From: an uncultured Spirochaetota bacterium
GTDB lineage: Bacteria; Spirochaetota; Brevinematia; Brevinematales; JAOACQ01
DNA: 64,000 bases
Reading direction: 5' to 3'
Assembly (NCBI GenBank): GCA_963783575.1
Contig: CAWAOD010000009.1
Span: 96,001-160,000 of the forward strand
In this document: positions 17,420-36,705 of the stretch, in pieces
How positions within the stretch are numbered: position 1 is the first letter of the stretch
Layout of the letters: each line of letters starts with the position of its first letter
Notes under the pieces: model-generated
Database searches by the model: none
What the model was told of the DNA's origin: nothing
The model's input: the letters and a program-made list of their open reading frames with translations, nothing else
Position numbers and translations under genes: made by a program

Positions 17420-17434
17420 TGGCATATAAATTGC
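17420..17434 (+). promoter_or_regulatory. sigma54 -24/-12 promoter
   Basis: TGGCATATAAATTGC = TGGCAY-N5-TTGC with correct GG-N10-GC spacing. Confidence 0.65.
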
Positions 17435-17444
17435 CCTATAAAAG

Positions 17445-17512
17445 CAAAGCCCCCTTAAAATATATTATTTTTTTGAAACCCTTCCCTACCCCCGGGAAGG
17501 GTTTCGCTATTA
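17445..17512 (+). ncRNA. Candidate sigma54-dependent small RNA
   Basis: About 65 nt between the sigma54 promoter and hairpin GAAACCCTTCCC-TACCCCC-GGGAAGGGTTTC; no plus-strand gene follows. Confidence 0.45.
17475..17505. terminator. 12-bp hairpin; terminator-like for the converging 17524-18894 gene and 3' end of the sRNA candidate
   Basis: GAAACCCTTCCC / GGGAAGGGTTTC. Confidence 0.65.
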
Positions 17513-17523
17513 TGGGACTTCTT

Positions 17524-18894
17524 TTAATCTTGTTTATAACGGATTTCATTACCAGCGCTCAAAAAACCACTCTTCACAGTATTATTGCTGTAAAAAGTAA
17601 TCGGTTGCTTATCGCCCGAAATAAAAAAAACGGGTTTATTATCTACAATAAATTCTGTATCAACTGACAGAATTCCTCTTGCAATTTCACCGTTTTCATA
17701 AAACTCAAGCGTATAATCATGCGTTCGTACGGAACTATTATTATCAAATCCAATAATCTCTCCGCCTTTGAAATAAATTTTTCTGTCATTAATCAATATT
17801 TCCGTATCCTTTTCCTTTGATCTGCAATATTTTAAAAATCCTTCCCGATAAAAACAAACCTCAAAATGTGAATCGATAATAATTCTATTTTTCCCGCAAA
17901 TCCATTCGATATCTTTCCGTAAAAAACCCTTCTTGATATTACCATTATCATAGAATTCAATTATGGAATCCGATTTAAAAATTAAATTTTTATTCCCTAA
18001 ATTTACATATGTATCATTATCAAGTATACCATTCATTAGAAATCCATTTAAATAAAAATTAATAACACTGTTATTTTTAAATTGAAATTCCAAACCATTA
18101 ATGAGAATTATTTTCTTACTTATTAAGAAAATCCGGGATATAAAGCCGTTTTTATGAAAATAAACTGTTTCACCGGAGGTTAATTCAAAGGGAATCCCTC
18201 CGGCATTTACATTAGTAATGAAAACGAGTATCCCGCTCCTGATCTCACCGCTATCATATAATGAAATTCTTTTAAAAATAAATTTATTATCATTTAAATT
18301 AAATTCTTCGGGTTTTGATAAAATCATGCCAAAACGTAATCCTCCTTTTTCGTCAATTAATCTGTATCGTCTATAATAAATCTTCCTGCCGTATAAATTC
18401 ACAGTTAATCCTGTAAATAACTGTCCGGGCAGATCAAATAAACCAAGTCCCTTTGTTATAAGTCTTATTATCAAATCAATCGAAAATACAAGTAAAGAGA
18501 TCGTAAATAAGATTATAAATGCCTGACGGTATCGAGAAAGGCCTGTTTCCTGCCTTTTCAAAAGAAAACCGTTATGAGATAGTTCTACAATATCACCGGG
18601 TTTTAAAAGGTTTTTTTTCATATTTTTATCGTAAATAACAGTCCATTTGGAAAAAGAACCGGTTTTGACAATACCCTCGGGATAAAAAATTATTTCCCTC
18701 CCGCTTTTAAAATAAAAACTGCCTATTTTCTCTTCCTTAGATAATATACCGCCGAAAGTGTTATCTGAATTTGTAAAAATACTATTAGAAATAAAATGTA
18801 TTTGATACCCTCTTATATTAAAAACTGCATCATCGGAATAAAGTAAAGAAATTAAATTAACAATTAATAAAATGATAAAAATTAATTTTTTCAA
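17524..18894 (-). CDS. Membrane protein with ~33-aa beta repeats (MORN/YwqK-like)
   Basis: Signal peptide, internal TM helix, repeated I-x-FY-x-NG-x-I-x-x-G-x-L. Confidence 0.65.
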   Translation of the reverse strand: MKKLIFIILLIVNLISLLYSDDAVFNIRGYQIHFISNSIFTNSDNTFGGILSKEEKIGSFYFKSGREIIFYPEGIVKTGSFSKWTVIYDKNMKKNLLKPGDIVELSHNGFLLKRQETGLSRYRQAFIILFTISLLVFSIDLIIRLITKGLGLFDLPGQLFTGLTVNLYGRKIYYRRYRLIDEKGGLRFGMILSKPEEFNLNDNKFIFKRISLYDSGEIRSGILVFITNVNAGGIPFELTSGETVYFHKNGFISRIFLISKKIILINGLEFQFKNNSVINFYLNGFLMNGILDNDTYVNLGNKNLIFKSDSIIEFYDNGNIKKGFLRKDIEWICGKNRIIIDSHFEVCFYREGFLKYCRSKEKDTEILINDRKIYFKGGEIIGFDNNSSVRTHDYTLEFYENGEIARGILSVDTEFIVDNKPVFFISGDKQPITFYSNNTVKSGFLSAGNEIRYKQD

Positions 18895-19094
18895 AATGAC
18901 CCTCCGTATTTTTCATTTTTCATTACTGATTCTAATAAAGATAAGATATTTAATCAAATTATAGAATCGCAACAAATTCTGAATATTTTTCAATTGATCA
19001 GGCAATTTAAATTTTTTTAGTTTTTTGTTATAAAGGATTATTTGAAGAAAAAGAAAATTTTTGGAAATTAGAATGCCATTCAAGATTTAATAAT

Positions 19095-21818: not shown

Positions 21819-22116
21819 GACAAAAAATTTATTTCCTCAAAATATTTCAGACTTTTTTAAGGCGCTTGGAAACGATAAGAGGCAGGAAATTTTATTGACT
21901 TTGTTTGCTGATTATGGTGAGCATAATATAAATGAAGTTTCAAAAAGAGTCCAAATAGCACAATCAACAGCCTCAGAGCATCTATCCTTTCTTAAAAGAG
22001 CGGGAATATTGGTTTCCAGAAAGGTCAATAAAGAGGTTTTTTACAAAGTGAATACAGAAGGCATAATTAAGATGCTTGATGAAATAAAATCAATTTTAAA
22101 CTGCTGTATGCCATAA
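21817..22116 (+). CDS. ArsR/SmtB transcriptional repressor
   Basis: FKALGNDKRQEIL...QSTASEHLSFLKRAG; C-terminal CC. Confidence 0.93.
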   Translation: MTKNLFPQNISDFFKALGNDKRQEILLTLFADYGEHNINEVSKRVQIAQSTASEHLSFLKRAGILVSRKVNKEVFYKVNTEGIIKMLDEIKSILNCCMP

Positions 22117-22185
22117 TATTTTTTTTAACAATTTATCGTTATATCCCGATATAACTATTTATTATAAAAGCCAGGAGAAATATTT

Positions 22186-23037
22186 ATGGGAAAGAAAATA
22201 TTTTTGAAAGTTGTAATATCAGTCTTGAGCATAATGTTTTTTATACACGCAATCAGCATTGCTATGGGTATTAAATTTGCAACAGGACCGCTTCAAAAGA
22301 GAAAACTATTGGTAAAGGATGGGGAATTTTTGAAGTATAAATGGAATTTTGGAACCGAAAAATCGGACGACGACTATTTTGTATACAGGACCGACAATAT
22401 TTCCAACACACTCACCCTTTATTGGTTTTGTAAGGATGTAAAGGGCAAGGTTGTTGTCCCGGATCATTATACAAACTATAACAGGCGTGTAAAGGTATCT
22501 TTGGATAAGGCTTCCATTCTGTATTTTACACGCGATAATACAAAAGAAACTATTGCCAATAATGAAAAGGGAGTGATTGCAGAAAGTCTTAACATTGACT
22601 ATAGTACTGGTGAGGCTGAATATTTGAGCAAATCCTGGGATGGAAACCAGACGACTTGTCAAAAGACAAGAGTGAAAATAAAACCGGATTATCCCGTTTG
22701 GGAGTTAAGTTCTATTGCATTTGTGGCAAGCCGTTTTATGGATATCAAAAAACCGGGAGTTCTTTTACTAGTACAGCCTGGAATCATAAAAGAAGCTGTA
22801 CCGGTTTCTTTTATTTATAAAGGAAAGGAAGATATAACAACCATTGCCGGAAAATTCCACACTTTGAAATATAATTTTCAAATTGCAGATCCTTTTATGG
22901 GTAAGCTGTTGGAAAATTATGTAAAGTATTCCTCAATCTGGATAGAGGATTCTGAAAGGGCGCTGCTGATTAAAGTAACTTATCCCGGTGCTACGAGTGA
23001 AATTGAAGAGATCGGAATATGGAAGGACGCAAAATAA
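22186..23037 (+). CDS. Exported hypothetical protein (DUF3108-like beta fold)
   Basis: N-terminal signal/TM; GKEDITTIAGKFHT...IWI pattern. Confidence 0.55.
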   Translation: MGKKIFLKVVISVLSIMFFIHAISIAMGIKFATGPLQKRKLLVKDGEFLKYKWNFGTEKSDDDYFVYRTDNISNTLTLYWFCKDVKGKVVVPDHYTNYNRRVKVSLDKASILYFTRDNTKETIANNEKGVIAESLNIDYSTGEAEYLSKSWDGNQTTCQKTRVKIKPDYPVWELSSIAFVASRFMDIKKPGVLLLVQPGIIKEAVPVSFIYKGKEDITTIAGKFHTLKYNFQIADPFMGKLLENYVKYSSIWIEDSERALLIKVTYPGATSEIEEIGIWKDAK

Positions 23038-23079
23038 GAACAGTTTATTACTTTATGCATTGATCATCACTATTATAAT

Positions 23080-23877
23080 TTACTTTAAAAGCATTATTAA
23101 ACCAAAGCCGACAACCAGAACGATAAAAATAATGCCGTAGACCTTCTCCAGAGTCTGAACATTTATCTTGGCTAATATCCTTGGCCCAAGAAACCCGCCG
23201 ATTACCGAGCCGCTTCCGAGTAGCAACAGCAACATAAGATTGAATTGGCCGACTATCAAATGCCCGGCAAGGCCGGAAACTGCATTAAAAAAAACCACCA
23301 ATACCGATGTTCCTACTACAGCAGTTACCGGTAAACCCAAAATATACAATCCGGCTACAATAGATGCCGTTCCACTTGTCCCAAACAGGCCTGCCATAAT
23401 TCCGGATAATATTCCAAAAAATGAGCATAATGCAATTCTTGAACCTGAAAGCGGTTTTGAAACTTTTTTCCCGCTACTAAGATTATTAAGCCTGTTTTTA
23501 CTTGTGAGAATCATTGGGATGGTCAAAGCTAAAGCATAGATTCCAAAAAGTTTCTGTAAAATAACTGCCGGGACAAGATGCGATATATATGCGCCCGCAA
23601 GTGCTCCAGCAAGCCCTGCTATCCCGAAAATAACACCTATCGGCATATTAATATTACCCTTGCGGTAGTGTTCAATAGATCCGACAATTACGGTGGGGAT
23701 AGTCGCAGCAAGAGAAGTAGAAACTGCAAGTTGTGGCGGTACATGAAATAAAAGAATCAATATCGGAACATAAAAAAAGCCTCCGCCTCCGCCGAATATA
23801 GTTACCAGAAGACCGATAGCAAGGCCGACTAATGGCAGCCAGAGATAACTTGAATTATAGGTTAAGTTCATTATCAT
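23080..23877 (-). CDS. TauE/SafE (TSUP) sulfite exporter family
   Basis: FGGGGGFFYVP, AVSTSLA, AVVGTS; multiple TM helices. Confidence 0.92.
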   Translation of the reverse strand: MIMNLTYNSSYLWLPLVGLAIGLLVTIFGGGGGFFYVPILILLFHVPPQLAVSTSLAATIPTVIVGSIEHYRKGNINMPIGVIFGIAGLAGALAGAYISHLVPAVILQKLFGIYALALTIPMILTSKNRLNNLSSGKKVSKPLSGSRIALCSFFGILSGIMAGLFGTSGTASIVAGLYILGLPVTAVVGTSVLVVFFNAVSGLAGHLIVGQFNLMLLLLLGSGSVIGGFLGPRILAKINVQTLEKVYGIIFIVLVVGFGLIMLLK

Positions 23878-24395
23878 TATGTGTAAGCCTCTTTATCTTT
23901 ACTTTCAATAGTTTTTATATCGCTTATTGCATTACTATGTATTTTGTTTATTATTGCATTTAATCCCCGCTGAAACAGGGAAAAGTCTTCCTTTGAAATC
24001 TTTTGTAGCCATATTCCAAAGAAATTTTCCCATCCAAGGAGTTTTTTAATAATTTCTTCACCCGCCGGCAAGAGCCGAACTATAACACGCCGACGATCTA
24101 ACGGATCTTCGCTGCGGTCAACTAACCCTTCATGTACCAGCTTATCAACGAGATGACTGGCTGTAGGTTCGCCAATCCTGAGTTGTTTGGCGATTTTTAT
24201 TACTGAAGATGTTTTATTGTGGGCGATTATAAATACTGTTCTCAATTGAGGCAGTGTTAGTTGAAGATCCAACCAGGCCGGTACTGAAGCCGTTAGGATA
24301 TCATGTAGTAAAACCCGGAGCAGTTCAATAACATCAGACACCTGGGAATTGTCGAACGGTAATTTTTCTTGTCTTTTCATAAATAAATTCTCCAT
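23877..24395 (-). CDS. MarR family regulator
   Basis: LTLPQLR...PTASHLVDKLV..GLVDR.EDPLDRR. Confidence 0.93.
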   Translation of the reverse strand: MENLFMKRQEKLPFDNSQVSDVIELLRVLLHDILTASVPAWLDLQLTLPQLRTVFIIAHNKTSSVIKIAKQLRIGEPTASHLVDKLVHEGLVDRSEDPLDRRRVIVRLLPAGEEIIKKLLGWENFFGIWLQKISKEDFSLFQRGLNAIINKIHSNAISDIKTIESKDKEAYT

Positions 24396-24400
24396 AAATC

Positions 24401-24453
24401 AGTTCGATATCATCGATATATTTTATGATAACGAACTATCCTTAAATTGTCAA
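24401..24453 (-). promoter_or_regulatory. marR promoter with inverted-repeat operator
   Basis: TTGACA-N17-TATCAT; AGTTCGATATCAT-N11-ATGATAACGAACT (one mismatch) overlaps the -10. Confidence 0.72.
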
Positions 24454-24549
24454 GCAATATTTGTAAGTCCGGCAGTATCGATGTAATTCATTAGCTTGGA
24501 GAAAGGCAAACGGCATAGAACTGTGGGATCAATTGATCCACTGATACTA

Positions 24550-25374
24550 CTAATTTAAAGCTAAAATATTTTTAATATTTAATTCAAAAACATGCTCTTT
24601 AACATTTTCAGATAGATTTAATTGATCTATCTTTTTTAATTGTTCTCCGATTTTTTCAAAAGGCATATCTGAGCCAAAAACCACATGCTCAAAGCCAAAT
24701 AAGTTTATAGCTTCTTGAATATTTTTTCCTTGACTCACATAACCGCCGGATGTATCAAAATAAATATTTTTAAGATAGCTTATATGTTCATAAAATATTT
24801 TTATTCCTAATAAATGTGCCACAATAAATGTCACATCCTGGTTATTTTTTATGAATTGAACAAAGTGATGAGTTTCTTTCTTTGAATACAAATGTATAAA
24901 TATTGGCAAATGATATGATTTAGCTACTTCAACTAATTTATTGAATTCAGGGCTTTCTATTTTAAAAGGATTCCATGCTTGATGAAGTTTTATTCCTTTC
25001 ACATTATAATTTCTAATATTTCTTTCAATATTGTTCATATGTTCAAAATCAATTGGATTAACCCATAAGAATTGAATTAAAATCTTAGAAATTTTTGATA
25101 AATCAAATTTATTTGATAAATCAAATACGAATTTATTGCCATCACCATTATCTTTTATTAAATTTCGATAAGCAAATCTATTTATTTTATTAAGAAAATA
25201 ATTGCTATCCGGAGTTTTTCTAACCGGTAATTTAGGTGCATCCGGTAAGTTTAAATTATTCTTAATGCTTGGGCAAATTAATATTTTTTCTATACTATAT
25301 TTTTTTACTATCTCCAATATAGAGTTAATATCTGCATATTCTCTTGCTGCATGGGCATGCGCATCAATAATCAT
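24550..25374 (-). CDS. Amidohydrolase_2 family protein
   Basis: IIDAHAH, GIKLH, IVAH, YFDTS, VFGSDMP. Confidence 0.9.
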   Translation of the reverse strand: MIIDAHAHAAREYADINSILEIVKKYSIEKILICPSIKNNLNLPDAPKLPVRKTPDSNYFLNKINRFAYRNLIKDNGDGNKFVFDLSNKFDLSKISKILIQFLWVNPIDFEHMNNIERNIRNYNVKGIKLHQAWNPFKIESPEFNKLVEVAKSYHLPIFIHLYSKKETHHFVQFIKNNQDVTFIVAHLLGIKIFYEHISYLKNIYFDTSGGYVSQGKNIQEAINLFGFEHVVFGSDMPFEKIGEQLKKIDQLNLSENVKEHVFELNIKNILALN

Positions 25375-25397
25375 TTAATATACTCCTTTAAAACAAT

Positions 25398-25546
25398 TTG
25401 CATAAGGCTATACTGCATTTGTAAAGCTTAGCGCCTCACCTTTTTGAGAGCCAGAGCTTTACAACCGATTCCAATTTAAACTCCTTTCTCTTTTTATAAA
25501 ATCTTAAACGGGCGAACCCATTTGTTCAATTCTGGCCGATGCTCAT
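25398..25546. repeat. Degenerate attC-like intergenic repeat, copy B
   Basis: CATTTGTAAAGCTTAGCGCC hairpin plus CTCCTTTCTCTTTTTAT...AAACGGGCGAACCC, shared with the 28.9 and 32.3 kb copies. Confidence 0.65.
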
Positions 25547-25547
25547 A

Positions 25548-26045
25548 TTATATATTTAGATCTTCTATTTTAGCAATATTTTGTGTTATTATTGGTTTAA
25601 AACCTAATGCTTTCCACGTTTTTTCAGCTTCAGAATTATTTATGACATAATTTAAAGTAAAAGAATTAATCTGTCTATAATACACTACAATTTCCTTCAA
25701 AAGTGATTTACATATACCTTGTTTTCTATATTCAGAATCAACCCATACATCATCAATTTTTACTGATTTATCTATTGTAAAATTATCATGCTTATTCAAA
25801 TATGCTGTTATCATTCCAACAATTTTATTATTTTTTAAATTTATAGCAATTAGTATTCTAACATTACCATCTTCCAATTAATTTTTAAAATACACATTTA
25901 AATTATTTCTCCATTCAGGAGTATATTTTAAAATATTATCATTAGAATTCTCCATGTGATTTTGTAACAAAAGACGCATTCTAACTAAATCAGGAATATG
26001 ATCAATATCAGCATTAATAATTTTAAATTTAATATTCATATTCAT
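25548..26045 (-). pseudogene. GNAT acetyltransferase with an in-frame TAA
   Basis: MNMNIKFKIINADIDHIPDL...YFKN*LEDGNV...WVDSEYRKQGIC; stop at 25878-25880. Confidence 0.75.
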
Positions 26046-26087
26046 TATTCACTCCCCCTCTTTAATAAATAGATACATATATTATGC

Positions 26088-26115
26088 GTACAACGCTGTT
26101 TTATATACGAAGTCC
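26088..26115. repeat. attC-like core-site remnant
   Basis: GTACAAC...TATATACGAAGT; same motif as 33767-33789. Confidence 0.5.
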
Positions 26116-26213
26116 ATGATCGTTTTTATTTATAATTTTAATTTCGCCACAATCTATTTTCATATTCAATATCAAAAACTGGGGAATTTGCAGTTATATA
26201 TTTTAACACTGTT

Positions 26214-26405
26214 TTACCTTATTATTCCATGTTCAGAATTAGAAGGAATATAAATAGCATCACCTGTCTTAACTTTTTGCTTTTCATTGTCAACCGTCAT
26301 TAAACCTTCACCTTTAATTATAATGTGACATTGTTCTGGTAAATGCTTATGTAGAGGTTGTTCTTTTCCTGATAAATTTTCACGGTCCGACCTCAAGACA
26401 AACAT
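26214..26405 (-). pseudogene. Cupin domain fragment
   Basis: HKH.PEQCHIIIKGEG...GDAIYIPSNSEHG; N-terminus missing. Confidence 0.7.
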
Positions 26406-27717
26406 AACACATATGACACTAGAACATGGTAAAACTTTTTATTTTAAAAACATTGTTTCATTATAGAACTAAACATAAAAGTTTTCAAATCAATTTGATC
26501 CTAAGGTTCTTTTCAAACTAGGCCTCAAAGCCTGCTTTGAAACCTTAGAGAACATTGGTGATAAAAATTCGACTATCTGGAAAAAGACAAAGTCAGATAT
26601 AATAATAAGATAATGGGCTTTAAGTAAAACCAATGCACATTAGGTAAATAAAATTTTTTGGAATTGGATGGAAAGGAAAATAACCATTTAAACTAGACTT
26701 TTTCTACAAGGCCGTAAAATGAAGTGCAAAATGCCAGTCTATTTATATTCGTATGGAATATAAAATTGTTTTAAATCGCTAATCATATTTATTTCAACAT
26801 CTTTATTATAAATAGCACAAAATCGGTCTTTCATCGCTTTATGGTCATCAGATTTGCATTGTATAAACACTTGTTTTAATGAAGGCAATTTTGATAAAAT
26901 ATCTTTATCAACTAATCTATTAAAAAAAGGAAAAGAATAACCAATAACAACCAATATTTCTGTTTTATTAATACAGCCTTCAATTTGCGGGTATATAATC
27001 TTTTTATAAATATTGTCTTCCCAGGCATAATTTATGTGAGGAGTAATTTTAGTTCGTTTTTGATTATAAAAACTATATAAATATAGTATTTCTGTAACAA
27101 TGCTTGAAACTTCAACATTTCTATAATTTAGTGAATATCGATCTAAATATTTATTATCATCATAAACTTCACAAATACCATTTAAATGTATTATTGAAAA
27201 TTTATTACAATTAATTTCAATTTTATAATCTCTTGATATAGGAATTGATTGAAGTTTAAAGTATTGCTCCTGGGTAATTAAATTTGAATAAAAATTAGCA
27301 AACGATTTTTCAAATTGAGTATCATAATTCCATGTTAATATTCTTATGTTATCTGGTAGTATAATTTCATTATTTTCTTTATTTAAGATTGAAGCAAAAA
27401 ATAAATCATAGCGATAATCTAAACGTTCTATTTCTTGTTGTCCAATTATAAAACATGATAATATGGACTTTAGCTTTGCGAGTTCATTTGGCTTATTATT
27501 TAAAAATAGTTTTTTAGCAAATGTATCAATAGAAAAATGTTTTTTTGATTCATTAATTAACCATTCTAAATCATTGATGAACATTTTTTTTACTGTACGA
27601 GCTGTTATATTTTCATAAAATATTTCATCTTCATTAATTACTGTTGAATTAACTATTTTTAAAAACTCAGTCATTAAAGATGGAAAATTTTCGACAAGTG
27701 GAAGTGTATTACAACTA

Positions 27718-28850
27718 GTGCTTAATTGCGTAAGTTAACGATAGTATTTCTTAATTGAGAACCTTTCACTTCCCGTTTTCTCCACACAAAAGGTTTTGCG
27801 GTTTCAGTGTATGCTTTAACAAATGCATCTATTGCTTCTCTCAATTCTTCCGTGTTTTTAAAACTGGCGCCTCTAAGAGCTTTTCGGCTCATAATACCAA
27901 ACCATATTTCCACCTGATTTAACCAACTTGCCGAAGTAGGCGTGTAATGAAAAAAAACATTCTTATTCCGGGATAACCATTCATCGTTCTTTTTGTGAAT
28001 ACAATAATTGTCTAAAATTACATGAATTTCTTTATCTTTTGAAACATCTACCACCACTCTATCCATAAACTCAAGAAATTCAATACGTCTTTTGTATTCA
28101 GTAGTTTGGGTGTGTATTAACCCTGTAGCTACTTCCAGCGCAGCAAATAGGTTCAGCGTTCCATTTCTTTTATATGTACTTTTGTATCCTCTTACAATTT
28201 TTCCATTATCCGTCTCTACATAGCCGGTTGTCCTTTCCAACGCTTGAATACCAGGTTTTTCGTCTACAGATATAACCAATGCATTCATCGGCGGATTTAA
28301 ATACAACCCAATAATATTTGTGGCTTTTGTCGAAAATTCAGGATCAGTGCTGACACACCAACTTCGCTGTCGGGATAAGCAAATTCCTTCTTTTCTTAAA
28401 ACCCTCCATACCGCATGCGTTGATGTGTTTAAATGTTTTGCTAAAGCCGGACCATCCCAAATTGCCTGCCCGATAGGCGGTGTTTTTTCCAGAGTTTCTA
28501 AAACTTTGTCCCTGAAATTCTGCCCATATATTTTTGGCTTTCCTGACCTGGGCAGATCATACAATCCATCAATTCCTTTTTGCTGAAATCTTTTTTTCCA
28601 ATCAATAACCGTATTTGGTCTTATGTGAAGGTCAGCCGCAATCTCAGATACATTTTGTCCTTTCAGGCTATTGACAATTATTTTCGCCCTCTCTACAAGT
28701 CGCGCTTCCATAGTTCGGCTTCTCACCCAACTATCAAGAATAATTTCATCCGCTTTGGTGCATGTTATAACTTGCGTTTTCTTAGACATACAACCTCCTT
28801 TTTTATGTCTAAGATTATAATTAATAACGCTTATTATTGCAATTAAGCAC
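27718..28850 (-). mobile_element. IS630 family insertion sequence
   Basis: 12-bp terminal IR GTGCTTAATTGC/GCAATTAAGCAC; TA on both sides (27716-17 and 28851-52) in a CTAG context. Confidence 0.95.
27722..28789 (-). CDS. IS630 transposase
   Basis: HTH; SVDEK, ILDN, SWLNQVEIWF DDE motifs. Confidence 0.96.
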   Translation of the reverse strand: MSKKTQVITCTKADEIILDSWVRSRTMEARLVERAKIIVNSLKGQNVSEIAADLHIRPNTVIDWKKRFQQKGIDGLYDLPRSGKPKIYGQNFRDKVLETLEKTPPIGQAIWDGPALAKHLNTSTHAVWRVLRKEGICLSRQRSWCVSTDPEFSTKATNIIGLYLNPPMNALVISVDEKPGIQALERTTGYVETDNGKIVRGYKSTYKRNGTLNLFAALEVATGLIHTQTTEYKRRIEFLEFMDRVVVDVSKDKEIHVILDNYCIHKKNDEWLSRNKNVFFHYTPTSASWLNQVEIWFGIMSRKALRGASFKNTEELREAIDAFVKAYTETAKPFVWRKREVKGSQLRNTIVNLRN

Positions 28851-28908
28851 TAGCTCCAGCTCCAGTCAAAAAAGTAATATTCATAAAAAATCCAAATTTA
28901 TATAAAAA

Positions 28909-28997
28909 TTGAACCCCTTCCTCTTTTTACTAAAAACAAAAACGGGCGAACCCGAGGAGCTGGAAAAACTTTTTCTTCTTCTCCGTTTACGTCCTGA
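28909..28997. repeat. attC-like repeat copy C, left part (continues at 31560-31600 after the IS21)
   Basis: TTGAACCCCTTCCTCTTTTTAC...AACGGGCGAACCCGAGGAGC plus hairpin arm GCTGGAAAAACTTTT. Confidence 0.65.
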
Positions 28998-29112
28998 TGG
29001 AAATGATAAACTAATTTACCAGGGTAGCAATAAATGAAATTCCCATACCTGTCACAAACAGATTTCCCATAGAGAAGCTTGAAGATTACCTTTAATGAAA
29101 ATTCATTAAAGG

Positions 29113-30675
29113 ATGGCAGGAATGGTGAAAAATATTATGTATCAGGACATAAAAAAACTGAAACTTTTGGGGAAAAGTAAAAATGGTGTATCCCGGGAAC
29201 TGTCAATAGATATTAAGACAGTCCGGAAATATTGGACTATGAACGATGCTGAATACCAGAAAAGCCTGATGGAATTCTCTTTCCGTGAAAAAGAATTCGA
29301 AGGAATAAAAACAGATATATTGAAAGTATATGCAAAGAATGATTACATCCGGCTGAATATGTCTGCTTTGTATGACTATTTATTGGAGGTAAAAGGCAAA
29401 CTACCGGCGAATGAAAATACGATGAGGAATTTCGTACATTACCTGATTGAAAGCGGGCAGCTTACCTTGAATGAAAAGCGACGGTATTACACAAAAGTGC
29501 CTGACATGCCATATGGAAAGCAGCTCCAGCTTGATTTCGGTCAATATACCGACAGATATGGCAGAAGGTATTACATATTTGCCGCGGTGTTATCCGCCAG
29601 TCGTTTTAAGTATGCGGCCCTCCAGGAGAGGCCATTCCGGACAGAAGACCTGATCAATCATCTGTTGGACTGTTTCGCATATATGGGCGGGATACCGCAT
29701 GAACTTGTCATCGATCAGGACTGCACGATGGTTGCGAGTGAGAACTCAGGCGATATCATCTACACGAAAGACTTTCAGTATTTCATCGGGGAAATGGGTC
29801 TTAAAATGTATGTGTGCCGACCTGCTGACCCGGAAAGTAAGGGAAAGATTGAAAACGTAGTCAAATTCATCAAGCACGGTTTCTTCTCAGTCCGGGAGTT
29901 CAACAGTTTAATGGAAGCGGAAGAAAGCCTGATGAAATGGCTGGAAAGAAAAGCCAACGGGAGAATATCCCAGGCTACAATGAAAATACCACTGATAGAG
30001 ATTGAAACGGAAAGACCATATCTCCAATCTGTCAGGAATTCGATATTCCGTAAAGACAGGATAGGAGCAAGGGAAGAGCGCAGTGTAAGCGATAAATGCC
30101 GGATCGCAGTTGATGCAAGCCAGTATGATATTCCCGAAAAATACAGGAACGGTTCGGTGGACATCTACAAGACGGGCAGTCGGCTTTTTGTCTTTGACAG
30201 GATAACGGGAGAGCAAATCGCCGAATACCGGCTTTCAGTGATTCCGGGGCAGATTGTAACCAACAGGGCAATGATCCGGGAAATGGGAAAGAGTGTGCAG
30301 TTATTGAAAGAAGAAGTAAGCGGGTACTTTGATATTCCCGGCTGGAAGGATTTTCTTGAATGTAATTTCAGGAAGTTCAATCGTTATGTAAGGGACCAAT
30401 GTCTTTCCGGAAGAAAATACTTCAGGGACAAGATAATTGATACCGGGAAGCTTACACAAGCGATCTCAAACTGCCTGGAGAGTGATAGTTATTCCATGAA
30501 GGATTTGTGGGATAATTACCTGAACTGTTTTATAACAGAAAAGGCAGAAATACCCTTGAATGTTGAAAAGATTGTCAGGCCTTCAGTGAATCCTGAACAC
30601 TATCTTGAAGTAGCTAAATCAGACATCGGGAAATACCAGAGTTTCTGTGACTCCATCGGGGGCCGGCAATGTTGA
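29113..30675 (+). CDS. istA: IS21 transposase IstA
   Basis: TVRKY HTH, QLDFG, VIDQ, ESKGKIE. Confidence 0.95.
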   Translation: MAGMVKNIMYQDIKKLKLLGKSKNGVSRELSIDIKTVRKYWTMNDAEYQKSLMEFSFREKEFEGIKTDILKVYAKNDYIRLNMSALYDYLLEVKGKLPANENTMRNFVHYLIESGQLTLNEKRRYYTKVPDMPYGKQLQLDFGQYTDRYGRRYYIFAAVLSASRFKYAALQERPFRTEDLINHLLDCFAYMGGIPHELVIDQDCTMVASENSGDIIYTKDFQYFIGEMGLKMYVCRPADPESKGKIENVVKFIKHGFFSVREFNSLMEAEESLMKWLERKANGRISQATMKIPLIEIETERPYLQSVRNSIFRKDRIGAREERSVSDKCRIAVDASQYDIPEKYRNGSVDIYKTGSRLFVFDRITGEQIAEYRLSVIPGQIVTNRAMIREMGKSVQLLKEEVSGYFDIPGWKDFLECNFRKFNRYVRDQCLSGRKYFRDKIIDTGKLTQAISNCLESDSYSMKDLWDNYLNCFITEKAEIPLNVEKIVRPSVNPEHYLEVAKSDIGKYQSFCDSIGGRQC

Positions 30676-31418
30676 AGATAAGAGAACAAATCATAACTGC
30701 GCTTACAACTCTCGGGTTGAAGGGTATGATAAAACGGATTGATGAGGAAATTGGTGAGGCTGAAAAGGCAAAAGAGTCTTATCTGAGTTTTCTGCAGAGG
30801 CTGCTTTCTCTGGAATTGAATTATAGAGTGGAAAAACGTTTTCAGCGGAATATGGCAGGAGCACACTTCCCGGTCCGCAAAGATGTGGAAGGTTTTAATT
30901 TTGAAAAAGTGAATGGAATATCTAAAATGGATGTTTCACAGCTATTGGATTTCTGCTGGATTGATAATCATCATAACCTGTTGTTCTTTGGGTCTCCGGG
31001 GCTGGGGAAAACGCATCTGGCAATTAGTATCGGAATCCGGGCAGTTGAAAAGGGATATATTGTCTGCTTTGAAAGGATGACTACTCTCATTAAGTTTCTG
31101 AAAACGGCGGACATCCAGAGAAGCTCTGCTTTCAGGCTGAACCGGATGATGAAGTCACACTTATTAATCATTGATGAGATAGGTTACACACCTATCGAAA
31201 AGAAGGAGGCAAATCTATTCTTTAGTCTTGTAAGTGAATTGTATGAAAAGACATCAATTGTGATAACATCGAATAAGGGATTTCAGGATTGGGCTGAAAT
31301 GATGGGAGACCCGATTATGACAACCGCTCTTCTGGATAGGCTTTTACATCATTCAAATATTTATAACTTGAGCGGAGAATCTTACAGAATACAAAATTTG
31401 AATAAGGAGGTTGAGTAA
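30669..31418 (+). CDS. istB: IS21 helper ATPase IstB
   Basis: GSPGLGKTHLA, IIDEIGY, ALLDRLLHH, GESYR. Confidence 0.97.
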   Translation: MLKIREQIITALTTLGLKGMIKRIDEEIGEAEKAKESYLSFLQRLLSLELNYRVEKRFQRNMAGAHFPVRKDVEGFNFEKVNGISKMDVSQLLDFCWIDNHHNLLFFGSPGLGKTHLAISIGIRAVEKGYIVCFERMTTLIKFLKTADIQRSSAFRLNRMMKSHLLIIDEIGYTPIEKKEANLFFSLVSELYEKTSIVITSNKGFQDWAEMMGDPIMTTALLDRLLHHSNIYNLSGESYRIQNLNKEVE

Positions 31419-31628
31419 CCATTCTTTGCCTCCTCACTATGGGAAATACTCACGTGGAAGGTATGGGGAAAACTCTTGTGAAGCATATGGGAAATACTCT
31501 TGTGGAAGGGGTGGGAAATTACCCGAGCGCAGATATGGGAAAAACTCTTGACATTTCCACCTGAATGGAAAAGTTTTTTCGAGCACCGGAGCGTTATAGC
31601 AGCGGTCGTACGAAGGTTTCGCGGCGTA

Positions 31629-31919
31629 TTACTTAGCTGCATGTATTATTTTTAATACTTCGTCTTTTTCAAAATATTTTTTATTTGTATATTTATGAAG
31701 TATGCTTGAAATTAATGTTTGATATGGAATACCTTCATCTTCAGCAATCATTTTTATTTTTTCCAAATCAAAATTATTTAATCTTAAAGTAACAGCTTTT
31801 TTCTTTCCACTTGTCTTTAAAATTGTTTCGATTTTCTTTTTTTTATCTAATGAAATTGGTTTATATTCCAATGCTTCGTTTTCAATTATTTGTTCTGAAT
31901 TATCTAATTTATATTTCAT
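31629..31919 (-). CDS. BrnA/CopG-like antitoxin
   Basis: KKAVTLRL...GIPYQTLISSILH; overlaps the toxin stop codon. Confidence 0.82.
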   Translation of the reverse strand: MKYKLDNSEQIIENEALEYKPISLDKKKKIETILKTSGKKKAVTLRLNNFDLEKIKMIAEDEGIPYQTLISSILHKYTNKKYFEKDEVLKIIHAAK

Positions 31920-32182
31920 TTTTCTTTCTCCTTATAAATCTTATGAAATTTTCTACTGGGATAAACAATTTTTATTATAATATTATTATTCTTATCAATA
32001 ACAAAAGGAACTGCATAAGTATATTTTTTATAATATATAATAAAAAGCTGTTGATTAGTTTTTTTTGGGTGTTCTAAAATATCTAAATAATTTTGATCCA
32101 GTATGATTTGAGCTACTTCATCAACATCAATATCTCGTTCAAATTTTAATTTAATTGCTTTATTTTCATCATAAACAATCAT
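31916..32182 (-). CDS. BrnT-like toxin
   Basis: YDENKA...ER.IDVDEV...ILEHP...NQ...YAVPFV...VYPSRK. Confidence 0.8.
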   Translation of the reverse strand: MIVYDENKAIKLKFERDIDVDEVAQIILDQNYLDILEHPKKTNQQLFIIYYKKYTYAVPFVIDKNNNIIIKIVYPSRKFHKIYKEKEK

Positions 32183-32258
32183 AATAAATAATAATTATTG
32201 AAAAAATAAATGTCAATATAATGTATGTATAATGTAATCGAAATTCCGCAAATCTTTC

Positions 32259-32555
32259 GTACAACGGTGCAACTGTACGGCATTTGCAAGCCTTAGCGCC
32301 AGCCCTGCACGCTTAGGCTTGCAAATGTGGTGAGCCCGTAAATAATGACTTCTATTTTAATAATCATCAAAGTCAGATTGAACTCCTTTCTCTTTTTATT
32401 AAAATCAAAAACGGGTGAACCCGGGGAGCGCAACATAGAGCCGCTGAGTCTGCCGCAAAACCCGGATTTTTATCAATTTTGCCGTTTTAACTCTATATAT
32501 TCCAACTAGAAATATTTTAGAAACCCTGCTTTTGCGACAGATTCCGTTGTTATGC
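32259..32555. repeat. Long branched attC-like element, copy A
   Basis: GTACAAC ... GTTATGC boundaries; 13-bp perfect hairpin 32281-32327; 15-bp imperfect stem 32446-32460/32530-32544. Confidence 0.7.
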
Positions 32556-32585
32556 GATGGCCGGGCCGAAACATAGGTAATCAAA

Positions 32586-33269
32586 TTATTCTTTTAATTC
32601 ATCCATTATTATACTATTATAAGATAAAGTTGAAATAATTAATAACGGCAATATTGTCAACATTATATAAAGCATTACAAAGAGACTTTTTGAAATAATA
32701 TTTGGATCATTTACACCATATGAAAAGCCAAATACTTCGGTTATAATTGAATGTAAAAATACTATCAAAAATATTACCAATAATATTAGCCAAGGCTTTG
32801 AAATTATATTTCTAATTTTATAAGGAATTTTTCTCCATAATCTTAATCGACTATTTATTAACATTGCATAGATACTTATAATTATAGCACATCCAAATTG
32901 AGCTGCGCCACCACCACTCAAATATTGTAATATTGATAATAAAAGTAAAATCATCCAGGAATATTTAAAATAAATAAAATTTGCTGAATAAATAATAACT
33001 ATTGTGCTAATAATAATTGCGATTATTCCTGTAATCAGATAATTTGGAATTATTGTAAAAGCTGGCGCATAACCGAATTCCCAAAATCTATTTGATTCAC
33101 CAATAGCATAAATCATGAGTTTCCCAGCAACAGAATGAAGTTCAATAGCTTTATTTCCTTGAAATACTTCAAATAAACCATGAACTATTCCTGATATGCC
33201 ACAAATTATACTAACTAACATTACTGCAATCTTTATTGCATTTGTAAATCTTTGGTTTGTATTATTCAT
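32586..33269 (-). CDS. Hypothetical polytopic membrane protein
   Basis: About six hydrophobic segments; HGLFEVFQGN and PAFTIIPNYLITG. Confidence 0.7.
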   Translation of the reverse strand: MNNTNQRFTNAIKIAVMLVSIICGISGIVHGLFEVFQGNKAIELHSVAGKLMIYAIGESNRFWEFGYAPAFTIIPNYLITGIIAIIISTIVIIYSANFIYFKYSWMILLLLSILQYLSGGGAAQFGCAIIISIYAMLINSRLRLWRKIPYKIRNIISKPWLILLVIFLIVFLHSIITEVFGFSYGVNDPNIISKSLFVMLYIMLTILPLLIISTLSYNSIIMDELKE

Positions 33270-33722
33270 ATTAACTCCATTTTATGATGATAATTATTTT
33301 CAAAATTTAAAGCTTTAGACAAATTTGGAAAAATTCTATATAAATCATTCTTTGCCCAAACTATGATATTATTGTTTTCAAATTCTTTTCTTAATTTATC
33401 TGAGATAAAACCTGGGAAAGTAATTAATGGTTGCTGTGTTGGAAATGCTTTTTGATACAATTTCATAATATCCATATAATTTTTAAATCTTTGCTCAGTT
33501 TCAGGTGGGGTCGATTTAACTTCAATACATAAATGATCCCATTGTTCATTGTTTCGACCTCTAGGGTAATAATCAACCATAATATCAGCTTCAACAATTT
33601 TTCCTTCACCCATTAAATGAAGGCTACTAACTCCTCTAGTTGTATTTTTAAAACGTGAATCATCAATCATAAATAGTTGATTCAAATGTATTATTGAAAG
33701 CTATTTTATCTTTTATTTCCAT
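33266..33722 (-). CDS. PD-(D/E)xK restriction endonuclease-like protein (N-terminal frameshift)
   Basis: EADIMV...CIEVKS...NIIVWAKNDL; RBS-preceded ATG at 33722 is out of frame with ORF 33266-33685. Confidence 0.55.
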
Positions 33723-33766
33723 AATTACCTTCATTATATTTTTTAAACGGCGTCTGATGCAATTAT

Positions 33767-33828
33767 GTCTAACTCGATATATACGAAGTTCATATATTAC
33801 CCCAAATCCCGGGTATTAAATGAACTTC
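33767..33828. repeat. Array-proximal core site plus hairpin (attC/attI-like remnant)
   Basis: GTCTAAC (GTTAGAC on minus), TATATACGAAGT, stem GAAGTTCAT/ATGAACTTC. Confidence 0.55.
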
Positions 33829-33865
33829 TTTACCAACTTGCCGGGCAACGGCTTGAAATAATTTC

Positions 33866-33895
33866 ATTATAGCATTTTAATTTGCTGATTGTCAA
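33866..33895 (-). promoter_or_regulatory. Strong sigma70 promoter facing the cassette array
   Basis: TTGACA-N18-TATAAT with extended TG. Confidence 0.75.
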
Positions 33896-34051
33896 TCAGG
33901 GTCAGGATAGAATCATAACACCTACCGTTATCGAATTATTATATGGAAAATTCAGAGTTATTTTTGAGTTTAAAATGTTTTTCATATACAATCTCCTGGT
34001 ATTAATTATAAAAATCCATTAGATAATACAAAGAATCTCCGGAGGCTAAAA

Positions 34052-35835
34052 ATGAAAATTATTTTTATATCCATCTTTCTTTTTCTTTCAGTGTCCGTTT
34101 ATTCCGCCGACTGGCCTATATACAAGGGCAACCTTTACTTTACCGGCAATAATGACCAGATCATAGTAAAGAACAATAGCCTGAAGTGGCTTTTTATGGC
34201 ATCCAATTATATCTTTAACCCGGTTGTTTCCGACGGCAAAATCTATTTTTCCGATTTGGATAAAATTGTCTATTCCGTGGATGAAGAAACCGGTAAAATA
34301 AAATGGAAATTGGATTTAAAAGACATATCCAGCCATTTTAGCGGAAATGCAGGAGTTCCCGGAAAAGTTAAATATCCGATCATCAGGGGAAATTCCATTT
34401 TCCTTTCAGATGCCACGGCAATATACTGCCTTGATAAAAATACCGGTAGAGTACTTTGGGCTAGGTCCGGTCTTCAGGAAAACGAAAAATAAACAGCTGT
34501 GATAGACGGTATTTATGCCGACCCTATTCTATCGGGAGATAATCTTTATTATGGCACCAGGAAGAATTTTATCGCACGTGAAATATTTAACGGGCATGTT
34601 ATCTGGTCCAGCCAGGAGATAGAAAGCTATAGCGGATTTCCCACGTATTACGATGATAAAATACTGGCACAGTCCAGGGATTATAAAAACAACTCTTACT
34701 TTGTCCTATGCCTGGACCGGTATACCGGAAAGATTCTTTGGAAGAAACAGATCGATAACCCTCTACAGATATTTTCACCGGTTGTATATCAAGGTAAAGT
34801 TTTTATCCCATCGGGAAAAAAGCTTTACAGCCTTTCTTTAAGTGACGGTTCAATAATCTGGCAGAAGGAGTACGGGGATTATATTACCTCAAACCCAAGC
34901 TTTACAGACAGGGAAGTGCTTCTGACGATCGGGAATCAAAAAATTGCCGTATTAACGCCCGATAACGGTTCCGTCAGCTATGAACTGGATTTCGGAGCCG
35001 GTCCGAACCTTATTATGTGACTGTGAATGATCAGATTTACACTGCTTTTAATTATAATAAAAATATCGGCGGTAAGGATATAACCTTCACATCCGTCAGG
35101 GCTTACACCTTCGGCGACAATAAGCCAATCTGGGAATTTCTGCCGCCTTTCCCCGGCGGCGCATCACAGCCGATTGCCTCCCGCGGTACTTTGTTCATTC
35201 CTGCAGGTAATTATCTTTATGCAATAGGTACTTATTATGAACGGCCGATTGTTTATGGAAATGACGGCAGCTCAATCCTGGAGCCGGAGGCCGGTTCCCC
35301 GGGCAAATCATCATCTTTCGCTGCTGTTCAGGAATCGTCCGGCGGTTCATCAACCTCGTCCCTGCCCTCATCAGGATTGAATGATAATTTTGTAAAAAAC
35401 CCTGTTTCCAGCCAATCCTCTTTCACCGAAAAAGAAAAAGAACTACCGAAAGCTCCGGAAAAGCCTGTGAACCTGGAAGAAACCAAACCTGGTGAAAGTG
35501 TTATAGTTCATAATATTTATTTTGAGTTTGATAAAGCCTATCTCAGGCGTGAGTCCATAGCAACATTGGATGATATTGTCAATCAGCTTAAGAAAAACAC
35601 AGCAATTAAGCTTGAAATCCAGGGACACACCGACAACACTGGAACCGTGGAATATAACAAAAAGCTATCCGATCGCCGGGCCGACGCAGTAATGGAATAT
35701 TTGATTAAGAATGGCATCAGCCCCGAACGGCTCCACTCCATGGGATTCGGCGAAACCAAACCGGTTGCCGATAACAAAACTGAAGAGGGAAGAAGTAAGA
35801 ACAGAAGGACGGAATTTTTGATTCTGGAAAAGTAA
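34052..35835 (+). CDS. PQQ/BamB-like beta-propeller fused to an OmpA-C domain (split into three ORFs)
   Basis: Signal + DWPIYKGN, repeated GKxxW blades, C-terminal IYFEFDK...GHTD...NRRTEF; in-frame TAA at 34490 and frameshift near 35000. Confidence 0.82.
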
Positions 35836-35952
35836 ACCGCCACCCGGCAGAATATTTCTCATTATTGAGAAAAAATACAATAAACCATCGATTTTTGACG
35901 TGATTCCCAAGAAATGATATTATATTTGATTAAAATAATGGAAGGACAAAAT

Positions 35953-36705
35953 ATGCAACCATTAATCACAGAAAAAGAATACGAAATCCATTACCATGAA
36001 ACGGATTTTAGAAGAAAGGTGTGGATTTATAGATTGATGAATTATTTTGACGATATAGTCCTTGAACAGAGTAATTTAATAGGTTTCGGTCTTGATTTTT
36101 TTGAAAAGAACAGTTTGATCTGGGTTCTATTAAACTGGGATATAAAAATAATAAAATTACCGTCATACCAGGATAAAGTGCTTGTAAGAACCTTTCCGTA
36201 TTCTATGAAAAAATGCTATGGATACAGGAAATATGAGATCAGGAATTCGATTGGAGAAAATATTGTAACTGCCGATACTGCCTGGATATTTCTGGACAGA
36301 AACACCATGCGTCCCTTGAGAGTTCCGGAAAATATTTGTACGGCTTACGGGATTGTTAAGGATGAAGGAGAAAGCCTGGCAATGGATAAAATCAACTCTC
36401 CGGATAGGGATGATATGGAGAAAGATTTTTTTGTGCGATACAGCGATATTGACGGAAACCAGCATGTTAATAATGTCAGCTATGTTGAATGGGCACTGGA
36501 AACGGTGCCCATGGATTTATTGCTGAATTATGATCCTTTAAACATAAAGATCAGTTATAAGAAAGAATCAAAATATGGAGACGCCGTCCGATCAATTTCA
36601 GAAATAAACATTAACGGATCATCTGCGGATTGCCGGCACAAAATTACAGATAAAAACGGCGTCGATTTGTGTTTACTTCAGACCATTTGGGAAAAGTCAG
36701 CTTAA
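35953..36705 (+). CDS. Acyl-ACP thioesterase
   Basis: VRYSDIDGNQHVNNVSY; double hotdog fold. Confidence 0.93.
   Translation: MQPLITEKEYEIHYHETDFRRKVWIYRLMNYFDDIVLEQSNLIGFGLDFFEKNSLIWVLLNWDIKIIKLPSYQDKVLVRTFPYSMKKCYGYRKYEIRNSIGENIVTADTAWIFLDRNTMRPLRVPENICTAYGIVKDEGESLAMDKINSPDRDDMEKDFFVRYSDIDGNQHVNNVSYVEWALETVPMDLLLNYDPLNIKISYKKESKYGDAVRSISEININGSSADCRHKITDKNGVDLCLLQTIWEKSA

Follow-up and report, generated by a model that had tools for sequence, protein, structure and literature searches.

We examine a window of 64,000 nucleotides from the genome of an uncultured Spirochaetota bacterium of the order Brevinematales, and find that its stretch between 24.5 and 33.9 kb is very probably a recombinase-less, largely decayed array of an integron-like system, with cassettes that probably owe their insertion and excision to a recombinase gene elsewhere in the genome. 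What defines an integron, and what searches look for, is an integrase with a specific insertion together with short attC hairpins; here the cassette logic is found without that insertion. It includes matched cassette ends, an attI-like docking site and, in a relative, a natural insertion-like polymorphism at the GTT of such a site; the recombination sites exceed classical attC two- to fourfold in length, and the docking stations are scattered round the chromosome. We regard the system as a variant of integrons, documented by the anatomy of its sites, their covariation, the logic of the cassette ends and the polymorphism in the relative. A preliminary description of the window had proposed integron-like gene capture with over-long, branched sites and a Pc-like promoter, and this reading survived every test that was run.

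The recombination sites of the array belong to a family of long repeats found across the genome. The preliminary description had recognized a first repeat family at 25.4, 28.9 and 32.3 kb, which is real, but what had been taken for a hairpin and a separate box are pieces of one long site. Three copies of 53 nucleotides lie at 25474-25526, 28908-28960 and 32377-32429, with a second repeated pair at 25408-25435 and 32273-32300. By genome-wide BLASTN, the repeats are dispersed, clustered and gene-bounding in arrays elsewhere in the genome. A site profile of 259 columns, made from 13 genomic copies, gives 28 matches at E ≤ 0.01 in the 4.9-Mb assembly, 14 of them end to end, in about nine loci; arrays of sites occur on contigs C4, C5, C9, C10, C12, C13 and C16, and the window contributes four matches (25472-25519, 28906-28997, 31522-31608 and 32255-32434). 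Thirteen sites are full length and 85-95% identical. In an alignment of 17 copies with their flanks, the unit measures ~260 nucleotides between AAC and GTT (~260-290 for the repeat as a whole), and it starts with RYYYAAC, one A, the L'' stem (GCGGCTATA), small hairpins and GGGTTCGCCCGTTTTT. Next come a Shine-Dalgarno sequence and an open reading frame (ORF) of 23-25 codons, then a long hairpin, and the unit closes with L', ACC and GTTRRRY. Each site is thus built from a cassette-specific stem of ~20 bp ending in AAC/GTT, an internal loop of 1 nucleotide on one side versus 3-4 on the other, an L stem of 7-11 bp and a branched center. The center has a mean column identity of 89%, and the Shine-Dalgarno sequence with its short ORF is kept in all 13 copies examined.

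Folding the sites as a family supports their attC-like nature. In an RNAalifold consensus of 12 full copies, the AAC/GTT (R) stem and the L stem close around a multibranch center, with 97.2% paired cells and a covariation of 0.152 versus 0.098 in shuffles, none of 500 of which reached as high a value. In the long hairpin, 9 of 18 pairs have changed in a compensatory way. Fifteen of 16 sites drawn from this genome and a relative (G011) have a perfectly paired L stem of 7-11 bp, in at least eight different sequences; the exception is the whole site of the window. The arrangement expected of an attC-type site (R''-L''...L'-R', AAC/GTT ends and folding) is therefore seen in the alignment, in the consensus fold and in the covariation of the L stem, at a length outside the classical range, classical attC sites being 57-141 nucleotides long.

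The decisive test of the integron reading concerns the cassette ends. We took the 22 nucleotides ending in AAC at the 16 sites that have a 5' arm and sought their reverse complement within 10 kb upstream, with the other side as control. A partner matching at 16-20 of 22 positions exists for 10 of the 16 arms, 465-1344 nucleotides upstream and starting with GTT (nine) or GAT (one), while the best control matches were 13-15. A cassette's 5' end (GTT...) is hence reverse-complementary to the 3' end (...AAC) of the same cassette, and not to that of the neighboring site. For the first site on C5, the partner is the attI-like GTTAAAC behind the recombinase gene described below. Four of the six partnerless arms have the end of an insertion sequence (IS) abutting AAC, and altogether an element ending in ..GACTTTTTCTACAGGCTC abuts the AAC of eight attC-like sites (C4:21.6k, C5:476.3k and 479.1k, C9:388.0k, C10:77.5k and 82.6k, C16:116.0k and 118.8k). 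All 21 array cassettes, that of the window included, have A at position 11 of the 5' end repeat and C opposite it in the 3' arm, a pair that is mismatched in the top strand and becomes a G.T wobble in the bottom strand. The end-pair evidence used here consists of the targeted arm test and of lists at 18-19/22 restricted to pairs with the motif; a genome-wide scan for GTT...AAC end pairs at 17/22 was unspecific (300 pairs versus 424 in a reversed-sequence control) and was discarded. We also rejected a 1519-nucleotide cassette present in two arrays as a case of single-cassette movement, as it lies inside a 4.1-kb segmental duplication (97.4% identical). In public sequence, a 291-nucleotide contig carries an attC-like core with 10 differences and different flanks, the match breaking at about AAC and GTT; this contig may come from another organism.

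Ahead of the first gene of the array lies a leader (33.77-33.90 kb), a module that occurs at no fewer than 12 loci, that is, at least 12 in this genome. The TTGACA-N18-TATAAT motif that the preliminary description saw facing the first gene is exact, and is the sole 12/12 match in 24400-34100, where promoter-like matches as a whole are not enriched (56 versus 50.9 in shuffles). Of 13 leader copies in the genome, 12 retain both hexamers. The leader thus carries a consensus sigma-70-type promoter sequence, predicted to be a Pc-like driver of the cassettes. Just 3' of the -10 hexamer, nearly all copies have a CCGTTGAyCGG hairpin, which could act as an operator, perhaps bound by a regulator that controls cassette expression, or as a hairpin at the 5' end of the RNA. 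The attI-like part that follows contains a three-box region with the hairpin ATATACGC-AAT-GCGTATAT, which is compensated in the window to ATATATGAAC/TTCGTATATAT; changes in this hairpin between leaders are compensatory (CGCAATGCG versus GAACTTCG), and the leader copies diverge right after the GTT of GTTRRRY. The same boxes are found directly behind the recombinase gene on C5 (L001 2215-2285), there without a promoter, and in at least nine other leaders, while the attI-like site of the window has no recombinase beside it. A second repeat family in the preliminary description (ACTTCGTATATA...GTT) exists at 33790-33767 and 26115-26088, but it merges two things, the attI-like part of the leader at 33.8 kb and a solo half-site at 26.1 kb.

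A search for intI elsewhere in the genome and its relatives returned no canonical IntI (TIGR02249 at 265 bits or more) in any of 35 genomes of the order, the present one included, but it did return a tyrosine recombinase without the IntI insertion beside the array on C5. This gene, our sole candidate for the recombinase of the arrays, is the best TIGR02249 match of the genome (C5:457467-458178, below the cut-off), and it lies directly upstream of the largest array and in the same orientation. The catalytic R, K, HxxR, H and Y are kept. In NCBIfam, the recombinase comes closest to NF040815, "tyrosine recombinase/integron integrase", with 175.6 bits for the 205-amino-acid piece of the broken gene in our genome (cut-off 220) and 237.7, 236 and 215.8 bits for intact relatives. 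With TIGR02249 (cut-off 265), the intact relatives reach 212-214 bits, the match coming in two stretches: the array-linked proteins cover positions 2-180 and 234-315 of the model only. In line with this, ~42 residues between positions 170 and 244 of VchIntIA (2a3v) have no counterpart, i.e. the IntI-specific insertion is absent. An AlphaFold model of the G011 homologue (pLDDT 86.5) has VchIntIA (2a3v) as its best fold match (E 4e-16), followed by XerA. The recombinase has an additional ~75-80 amino acids at its N terminus that match no Pfam family in five homologues; a HARP-like domain in this region was rejected, as the weak Pfam match (E 0.0027) is confined to the fragment from our genome and is found in none of the five intact homologues at E ≤ 0.01. 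In a tree of 36 rows made by a quick method (one row, L089, is a wrong-frame ORF with a branch length of 10 and was discounted), canonical IntIs form one clade (support 100) with the insertion-less family outside it, and the two together are split from the XerC/D-like proteins of the genome (support 100). The branching order of IntI and the insertion-less family is not settled by the tree (support 82-83). The recombinase belongs to the IntI/XerA clade.

Related genomes, too, link this recombinase to cassette arrays. Nine of 41 related genomes, our own included, have a homologue (E ≤ 1e-30), several of them intact with 346-365 amino acids, and three of the 41 have DNA matches to the site. In G011 and G005, an intact recombinase gene lies upstream of attC-like matches and is co-oriented with them. 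G011 has four copies of the recombinase gene, and its sites are shorter (144-215 nucleotides between AAC and GTT) and of the same build. Two G011 contigs, C6 (L117) and C7 (L116), have the recombinase and attI in common with 2 mismatches in 1945 nucleotides and diverge immediately after GTT, where C6 has an additional ~1.43 kb, one cassette together with its site, before the cassette that comes first in C7. This difference is what an insertion at attI would leave; the two contigs may also be strain variants of one locus. Among the features by which integrons are recognized, we therefore find the cassette logic (the arm test above, and a toxin-antitoxin cassette in the window) and an attI beside a recombinase (on C5, and on C6 and C7 of G011); an intI with the additional domain around patch III is absent.

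Within the window, the array reads as follows, from the leader to the last gene:

33866-33895, minus strand: promoter-like site of the leader, facing the cassettes, with TTGACA (33895-33890), an 18-nucleotide spacer and TGc-TATAAT (33871-33866; TG at 33874-33873).
33836-33852, minus strand: small leader hairpin GCCGTTGCCCGGC (CCGTTGAyCGG in other copies), just 3' of the -10, from the leader alignment.
33767-33830, minus strand: attI-like docking site, a three-box region with the hairpin ATATATGAAC/TTCGTATATAT (33797-33777), CGA and GTTAGAC (33773-33767).
32586-33766, minus strand: first cassette-like unit, with ORFs of 139 amino acids (33685-33266) and 227 amino acids (33269-32586, membrane-like).
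32259-32555, minus strand: whole attC-like site of ~290 nucleotides (nhmmer E 8e-53 for 32255-32434).
31605-32264, minus strand: intact cassette of 660 nucleotides, with genes for a BrnT-like toxin (32182-31916) and a BrnA/CopG-like antitoxin (31919-31629).
31560-31604, minus strand: 5' part of a second attC-like site, CGCTGCTATAACGCTCCGGTGCTCGAAAAAACTTTTCCATTCAGG, up to the point where an IS21-family element has split it (from the sequence, and nhmmer E 6e-12 for 31522-31608).
28998-31559, plus strand: IS21-family element with istA (29113-30675) and istB (30669-31418) (Pfam rve and IstB_IS21).
28910-28997, minus strand: continuation of the second attC-like site to ..AAAAAGAGGAAGGGGTTCAAT (nhmmer E 3e-20 for 28906-28997, model positions 43-136).
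26739-28884, minus strand: SIR2_2-like gene (Atlas look-up), starting with ATG at 28884 (MNITFLTGAGAS..) and, after an interruption, resuming in frame to 26739.
26406-26738, minus strand: spacer of two dispersed repeats (blastn matches on C5, C4, C9 and C15).
26214-26405, minus strand: truncated cupin gene, 63 amino acids (Pfam Cupin_2 E 1.1e-12, profile positions 8-56 of 70).
26088-26115, minus strand: solo half-site ACTTCGTATATA-aaacagc-GTTGTAC, L'-R' only, read from the sequence.
25548-26045, minus strand: GNAT acetyltransferase gene with an in-frame TAA at 25880-25878 (Pfam Acetyltransf_1 E 1e-10).
25400-25540, minus strand: degraded remnant of an attC-like site, its 5' arm and first hairpin arm gone and R' mutated to CTTATGC (nhmmer E 1.5e-5 for 25472-25519).
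24550-25374, minus strand: last AT-rich gene, amidohydrolase/TatD-like, 274 amino acids (Pfam Amidohydro_2 E 4e-17).

By anatomy, then, the array consists of one whole attC-like site, one split site and one remnant, with no recombinase gene. Every ORF from 24550 to 33685 that does not belong to an IS is encoded on the minus strand, and GC content is 0.26-0.29 at 25-28 kb and 32-34 kb versus 0.36-0.39 for most contigs, in agreement with the AT-rich, minus-strand genes of the preliminary description. The core sites that it listed are equally in place: GTTAGAC at 33773-33767, GTTGTAC at 32265-32259 and again at 26094-26088, and the degenerate CTTATGC at 25406-25400. Its label of a CALIN-like platform (from clusters of attC sites lacking integron integrases, CALINs) fits in that the array has no adjoining recombinase gene, but not in two other respects, as a leader with a promoter-like and an attI-like part is present and the lineage has no canonical IntI.

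At the start of the whole site stand R'' (GCATAACAAC) and an L'' stem with bulges, followed by a 5' module that has diverged and by GGGTTCACCCGTTTTT; then come a Shine-Dalgarno sequence and mini-ORF of 24 codons (~32364-32290), the long hairpin CATTTGCAAGCCTAAGCG/CGCTAAGGCTTGCAAATG (32326-32281), L', ACC and R' GTTGTAC (32265-32259). Directly behind it comes the BrnT/BrnA-like cassette, the one unit of the window with matched ends. Its 5' end GTTGTACGAAAGATTTGCGG (from 32265) matches its 3' end ..CCTTCGTACGAC (ending at 31605) at 16 of 21 positions, which is the top match in 9.5 kb and falls at the expected place, and it bears the A/C mark at position 11. This cassette carries its own promoter-like site (32216-32188, TTGACA-17-TATTAT, 11/12), and its two genes overlap by 4 nucleotides. 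The Pfam matches behind the assignment are PF04365 (E 0.0015; 19.3 bits, a weak match under the gathering score of 34.5), PF12441 (E 2.4e-6; 28.7 bits versus 28) and PF14384 (E 0.002; 18.9 bits versus 26.1). In five relatives, the BrnT-like protein has one weak match, outside the array contexts examined. The ends of the first unit are not a matched pair, because its 3' end matches the GTTAGAC side at best at 14/21, which is background; neither of its two ORF products has a match in Pfam, PADLOC or NCBIfam. For the solo half-site at 26.1 kb, no complementary 3' partner was found downstream (best 14/21).

The remainder of the array is in various states of decay. The IS21-family element sits inside the second attC-like site, flanked by a 5-bp duplication, TCAGG (31564-31560 and 28997-28993), and its ends are 98-100% identical to at least eight other copies in the genome by blastn. 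A second IS21 copy in the genome (C10:70.6-73.2 kb) is flanked by a piece of a different attC-like site, from the corresponding module (model positions 52-98), which hints that the element has a preferred target inside attC-like sites. One end of the element (31438-31550) has 24-nucleotide tandem repeats (TATGGGAAATACTC..), with inverted copies at the other end (29037-29075), and these could be multiple terminal binding sites. The split site lacks its 3' third, that is, the mini-ORF, long hairpin, L' and R'. The SIR2_2-like gene is interrupted by an IS630-family element (~27716-28853; transposase at 28789-27722, Pfam DDE_3/HTH), with inverted repeats GTGCTTAATTGC and a duplicated TA. No attC-like site is left in the spacer at 26406-26738, and one of its two repeats (ACGGCCTTGTAGAAAAAGTC, 26716-26695) is a diverged copy of the other end of the element in ..GACTTTTTCTACAGGCTC that adjoins AAC at eight sites of the genome. 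A terminator-like hairpin was called at 25523-25506, within the degraded remnant, and no attC-like site is found downstream of the amidohydrolase/TatD-like gene. The array thereby illustrates how such arrays die: insertion sequences land in the recombination sites, and the sole whole surviving cassette is a toxin-antitoxin pair. As to the cargo, the toxin-antitoxin and GNAT genes announced in the preliminary description are present, the former with weak Pfam matches, but its defense genes are weakly supported. PADLOC found no family among six cargo proteins of the window, NCBIfam had nothing for five of seven, and the SIR2_2-like product has no match in Pfam, PADLOC or NCBIfam; its link to SIR2_2 is an Atlas lead only (scores 0.95-0.96, with 28 of 30 matches in that set).

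Several of our own observations weigh against the reading of this stretch as an integron-like array. In this genome, recombination is suggested by sequence anatomy. The IntI insertion, absent from the array-linked recombinase, is held necessary for attC recombination, and with the insertion missing, recognition of a folded single strand is something we infer. The recombinase gene is spread over three frames in the assembly by two single-base frameshifts, both at short homopolymer runs. Matched ends were found in the end-complementarity search for one of about five units of the window, the other four GTT sites having background-level matches (14-15), and the L stem of the whole site is weak, with two bulges in its ~8 pairs. 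Within the genome, the consensus fold is invariant at most of its pairs, and the structure was derived from the same alignment on which it was tested. Single-site DNA folds, which the preliminary description had put forward as a check, are strong on both strands (z ~ -5), but in the single-sequence minimum-free-energy folds the R and L stems are not closed. Finally, of the flanks only the PQQ/OmpA-like gene to the right of the array is common to G011, G006 and G008, and the synteny of the left flank is not conserved, so that variable content at the window locus cannot be cleanly demonstrated.

A real possibility, which we put a little short of an even chance, is that the system is genuine but extinct in this organism, the recombinase being a true pseudogene and all arrays frozen relics under attack by insertion sequences. 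The two frameshifts in the recombinase would be expected in this case, as would the IS21 and IS630 insertions, truncated genes and lost sites of the window, the IS end abutting AAC at eight sites, and the in-frame stops in neighboring genes. However, the frameshifts lie at short homopolymers and a conserved chromosomal gene beside the array is also broken, so that assembly error is possible; moreover, 13 sites are still full length at 85-95% identity, and 10 cassettes retain matched ends. The gene in question is the PQQ/OmpA-like gene, a single ORF of 600-660 amino acids in relatives, which here has an in-frame TAA (34493-34495) and a frameshift at ~35000, while the GNAT gene has its in-frame TAA at 25878-25880. 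These breaks are either real pseudogenes or assembly errors, and they bear on whether the frameshifts of the recombinase are real. Two matching sets of public sequence, both stored as contigs, cover mainly the IS elements of the C5 array and leave the recombinase gene uncovered.

We consider it improbable that the window holds a classical CALIN whose canonical IntI was lost or left unassembled, with the insertion-less recombinase on C5 a bystander, Xer-like enzyme. The sites do have RYYYAAC/GTTRRRY ends and R and L stems like those of attC, CALINs are described as common (Cury 2016, PMC4889954), and an assembly that is 89.85% complete leaves room for a missed IntI. Yet TIGR02249 exceeds its cut-off in none of the 35 genomes of the order, and in three genomes (our own, G011 with several copies, and G005) the insertion-less recombinase lies directly upstream of the attI-like site and cassettes. 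The cassette-sized difference in G011 falls exactly at the attI GTT of this recombinase, and an identical end design is seen next to members of this recombinase family in other phyla. It is hardly credible that the repeats are intergenic structured elements without a role in recombination, resembling attC by chance (like repetitive extragenic palindromes or miniature inverted-repeat transposable elements, or a small-RNA or peptide module with GGGTTCGCCCGTTTTT as a terminator-like part): the short ORF in all 13 copies examined, the strong fold on both strands, the conserved center and the terminator-like hairpin at 25523-25506 could be read that way, but a spreading repeat would not give the ends of each gene ~20 nucleotides of complementarity with a fixed mismatch at position 11, nor homology that ends at AAC and GTT, nor a link to a recombinase and docking site, and no Rfam family matches 22000-36000 at E ≤ 1.

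Returning to the integron-like array, we infer from these features a mechanism in which the recombinase, or an intact form of it, would be active in trans on all leaders, cutting between the G and the TT of folded bottom-strand sites. Strand choice would rest on the asymmetric loop and on the position-11 G.T wobble, fixed on the bottom strand, which would take over from the extrahelical bases that the IntI insertion recognizes. The leader promoter would transcribe the cassettes, and the Shine-Dalgarno sequence and mini-ORF in each site may keep ribosomes moving across the long spacers. The window would then have decayed by an IS21 insertion that split one site, an IS630 insertion that split a cargo gene, and deletions that took other sites.

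The system shares much with sedentary chromosomal integrons such as the V. cholerae superintegron (IntI4/VchIntIA, 2a3v). Its cassettes stand in arrays, share one orientation and mostly lack promoters, its sites form R and L stems and have RYYYAAC...GTTRRRY ends, the 5' end of each cassette is paired with its own 3' R'', a docking site lies by a tyrosine recombinase, the sites are near-identical within the genome, and a toxin-antitoxin cassette has its own promoter-like site; the structural model of the recombinase, too, finds VchIntIA as its top match. Unlike in sedentary integrons, the recombinase is without the IntI insertion and has the N-terminal extension, the sites are 200-300 nucleotides long with an R stem of ~20 bp rather than 7, a 1/3-4-nucleotide loop and fixed wobble stand where we identified no extrahelical bases, and at least 12 leaders per genome lack an adjoining recombinase. 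Short translated ORFs are familiar in or near integron sites, namely ORF-11 in attI1 and ORFs inside attC. As in those cases, a Shine-Dalgarno sequence and short ORF lie inside the site and end just upstream of the next cassette, whereas here the ORF is part of a conserved module.

The integrons of Treponema are an obvious comparison within the phylum Spirochaetota. Their IntI carries the IntI domain. Like these reverse integrons, the present system has its integrase co-oriented with the cassettes, an orientation noted for Treponema in the cited account (Cury 2016, PMC4889954), and a chromosomal array is described as surviving the loss of intI in one Treponema species (Wu et al. 2013, PMC3607928). 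The same source gives attC lengths of 63-132 bp; only one array per Treponema genome is described. CALINs, defined by Cury 2016 as at least two attC sites found by covariance model with no integron integrase within 4 kb, resemble the window array in being without a nearby recombinase gene, decaying, and one of several arrays in the genome. Unlike CALINs, the array described here has retained an attI-like site preceded by a promoter-like sequence, and its sites are probably beyond the usual size range of attC. Since the recombinase is without the IntI insertion, a CALIN in the strict sense is not demonstrated.

There is also the question of nomenclature. IntI is defined by its additional domain in a two-profile rule (Ghaly 2022 preprint), under which the cognate enzyme here would not be named IntI. 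In an integron-like subgroup, the insertion is described as "not fully conserved" (Smyshlyaev et al. 2021, PMC8138268). The best match of our recombinase, NF040815, is an XerA-like family, and neither its entry nor the relevant passages of that article (Smyshlyaev 2021, PMC8138268) connect members without the insertion with arrays of cassettes or with sites of the attI-like or long attC-like kind. Our literature search, bioRxiv supplements aside, found no account of insertion-less recombinases tied to cassette arrays, nor of attC sites of 200-300 nucleotides.

The design appears to reach beyond this order. In a scan of 79 loci around relatives of the recombinase in other genomes, eight end pairs at six loci have the GTT...AAC design with the position-11 transition, and these loci belong to an unclassified bacterial metagenome-assembled genome, Ignavibacteriota, Firmicutes (two), Flavobacteriales and Patescibacteria; ten other end pairs in the scan are without the position-11 transition design. 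This would be consistent with a wider hypothesis, for and against which we see the case as evenly balanced: a second, phylum-spanning lineage of integrons whose integrase never had, or did without, the IntI insertion. In such a lineage, sites of 200-300 nucleotides would be read via a ~20-bp stem with wobble and loop marks, one enzyme would serve a dozen promoter-plus-attI stations in trans, and the same design would lie beside the same family in Ignavibacteriota, Firmicutes, Flavobacteriales and Patescibacteria. Current integron finders, with their requirement for the IntI domain and for short attC, would then overlook an entire class of platforms for gene capture. If active, the enzyme would offer a natural test of single-strand recognition and strand choice without the I2 element of IntI, it would bear on the origin of integron integrases from Xer-like ancestors, and it would mean that integron surveys under-count gene-capture platforms.

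A few further observations concern other parts of the genome. Among the weak TIGR02249 matches are five copies of an adjacent pair of tyrosine recombinase genes (~447-454 and 348-369 amino acids), at C5:3.1-4.9k, 14.7-16.5k and 30.6-32.4k and at C15:6.5-8.3k and 26.3-28.0k, which may belong to a multi-recombinase mobile element. The composition profile of the window has further stretches of low GC at 16000-19000 (0.28-0.29) and 51000-54000 (0.29-0.33). Lastly, the end-pair scan picked up a perfect inverted repeat on contig C6 of the same genome (13.9-17.3 kb), with arms of ~1.7 kb that match at 22/22 throughout.

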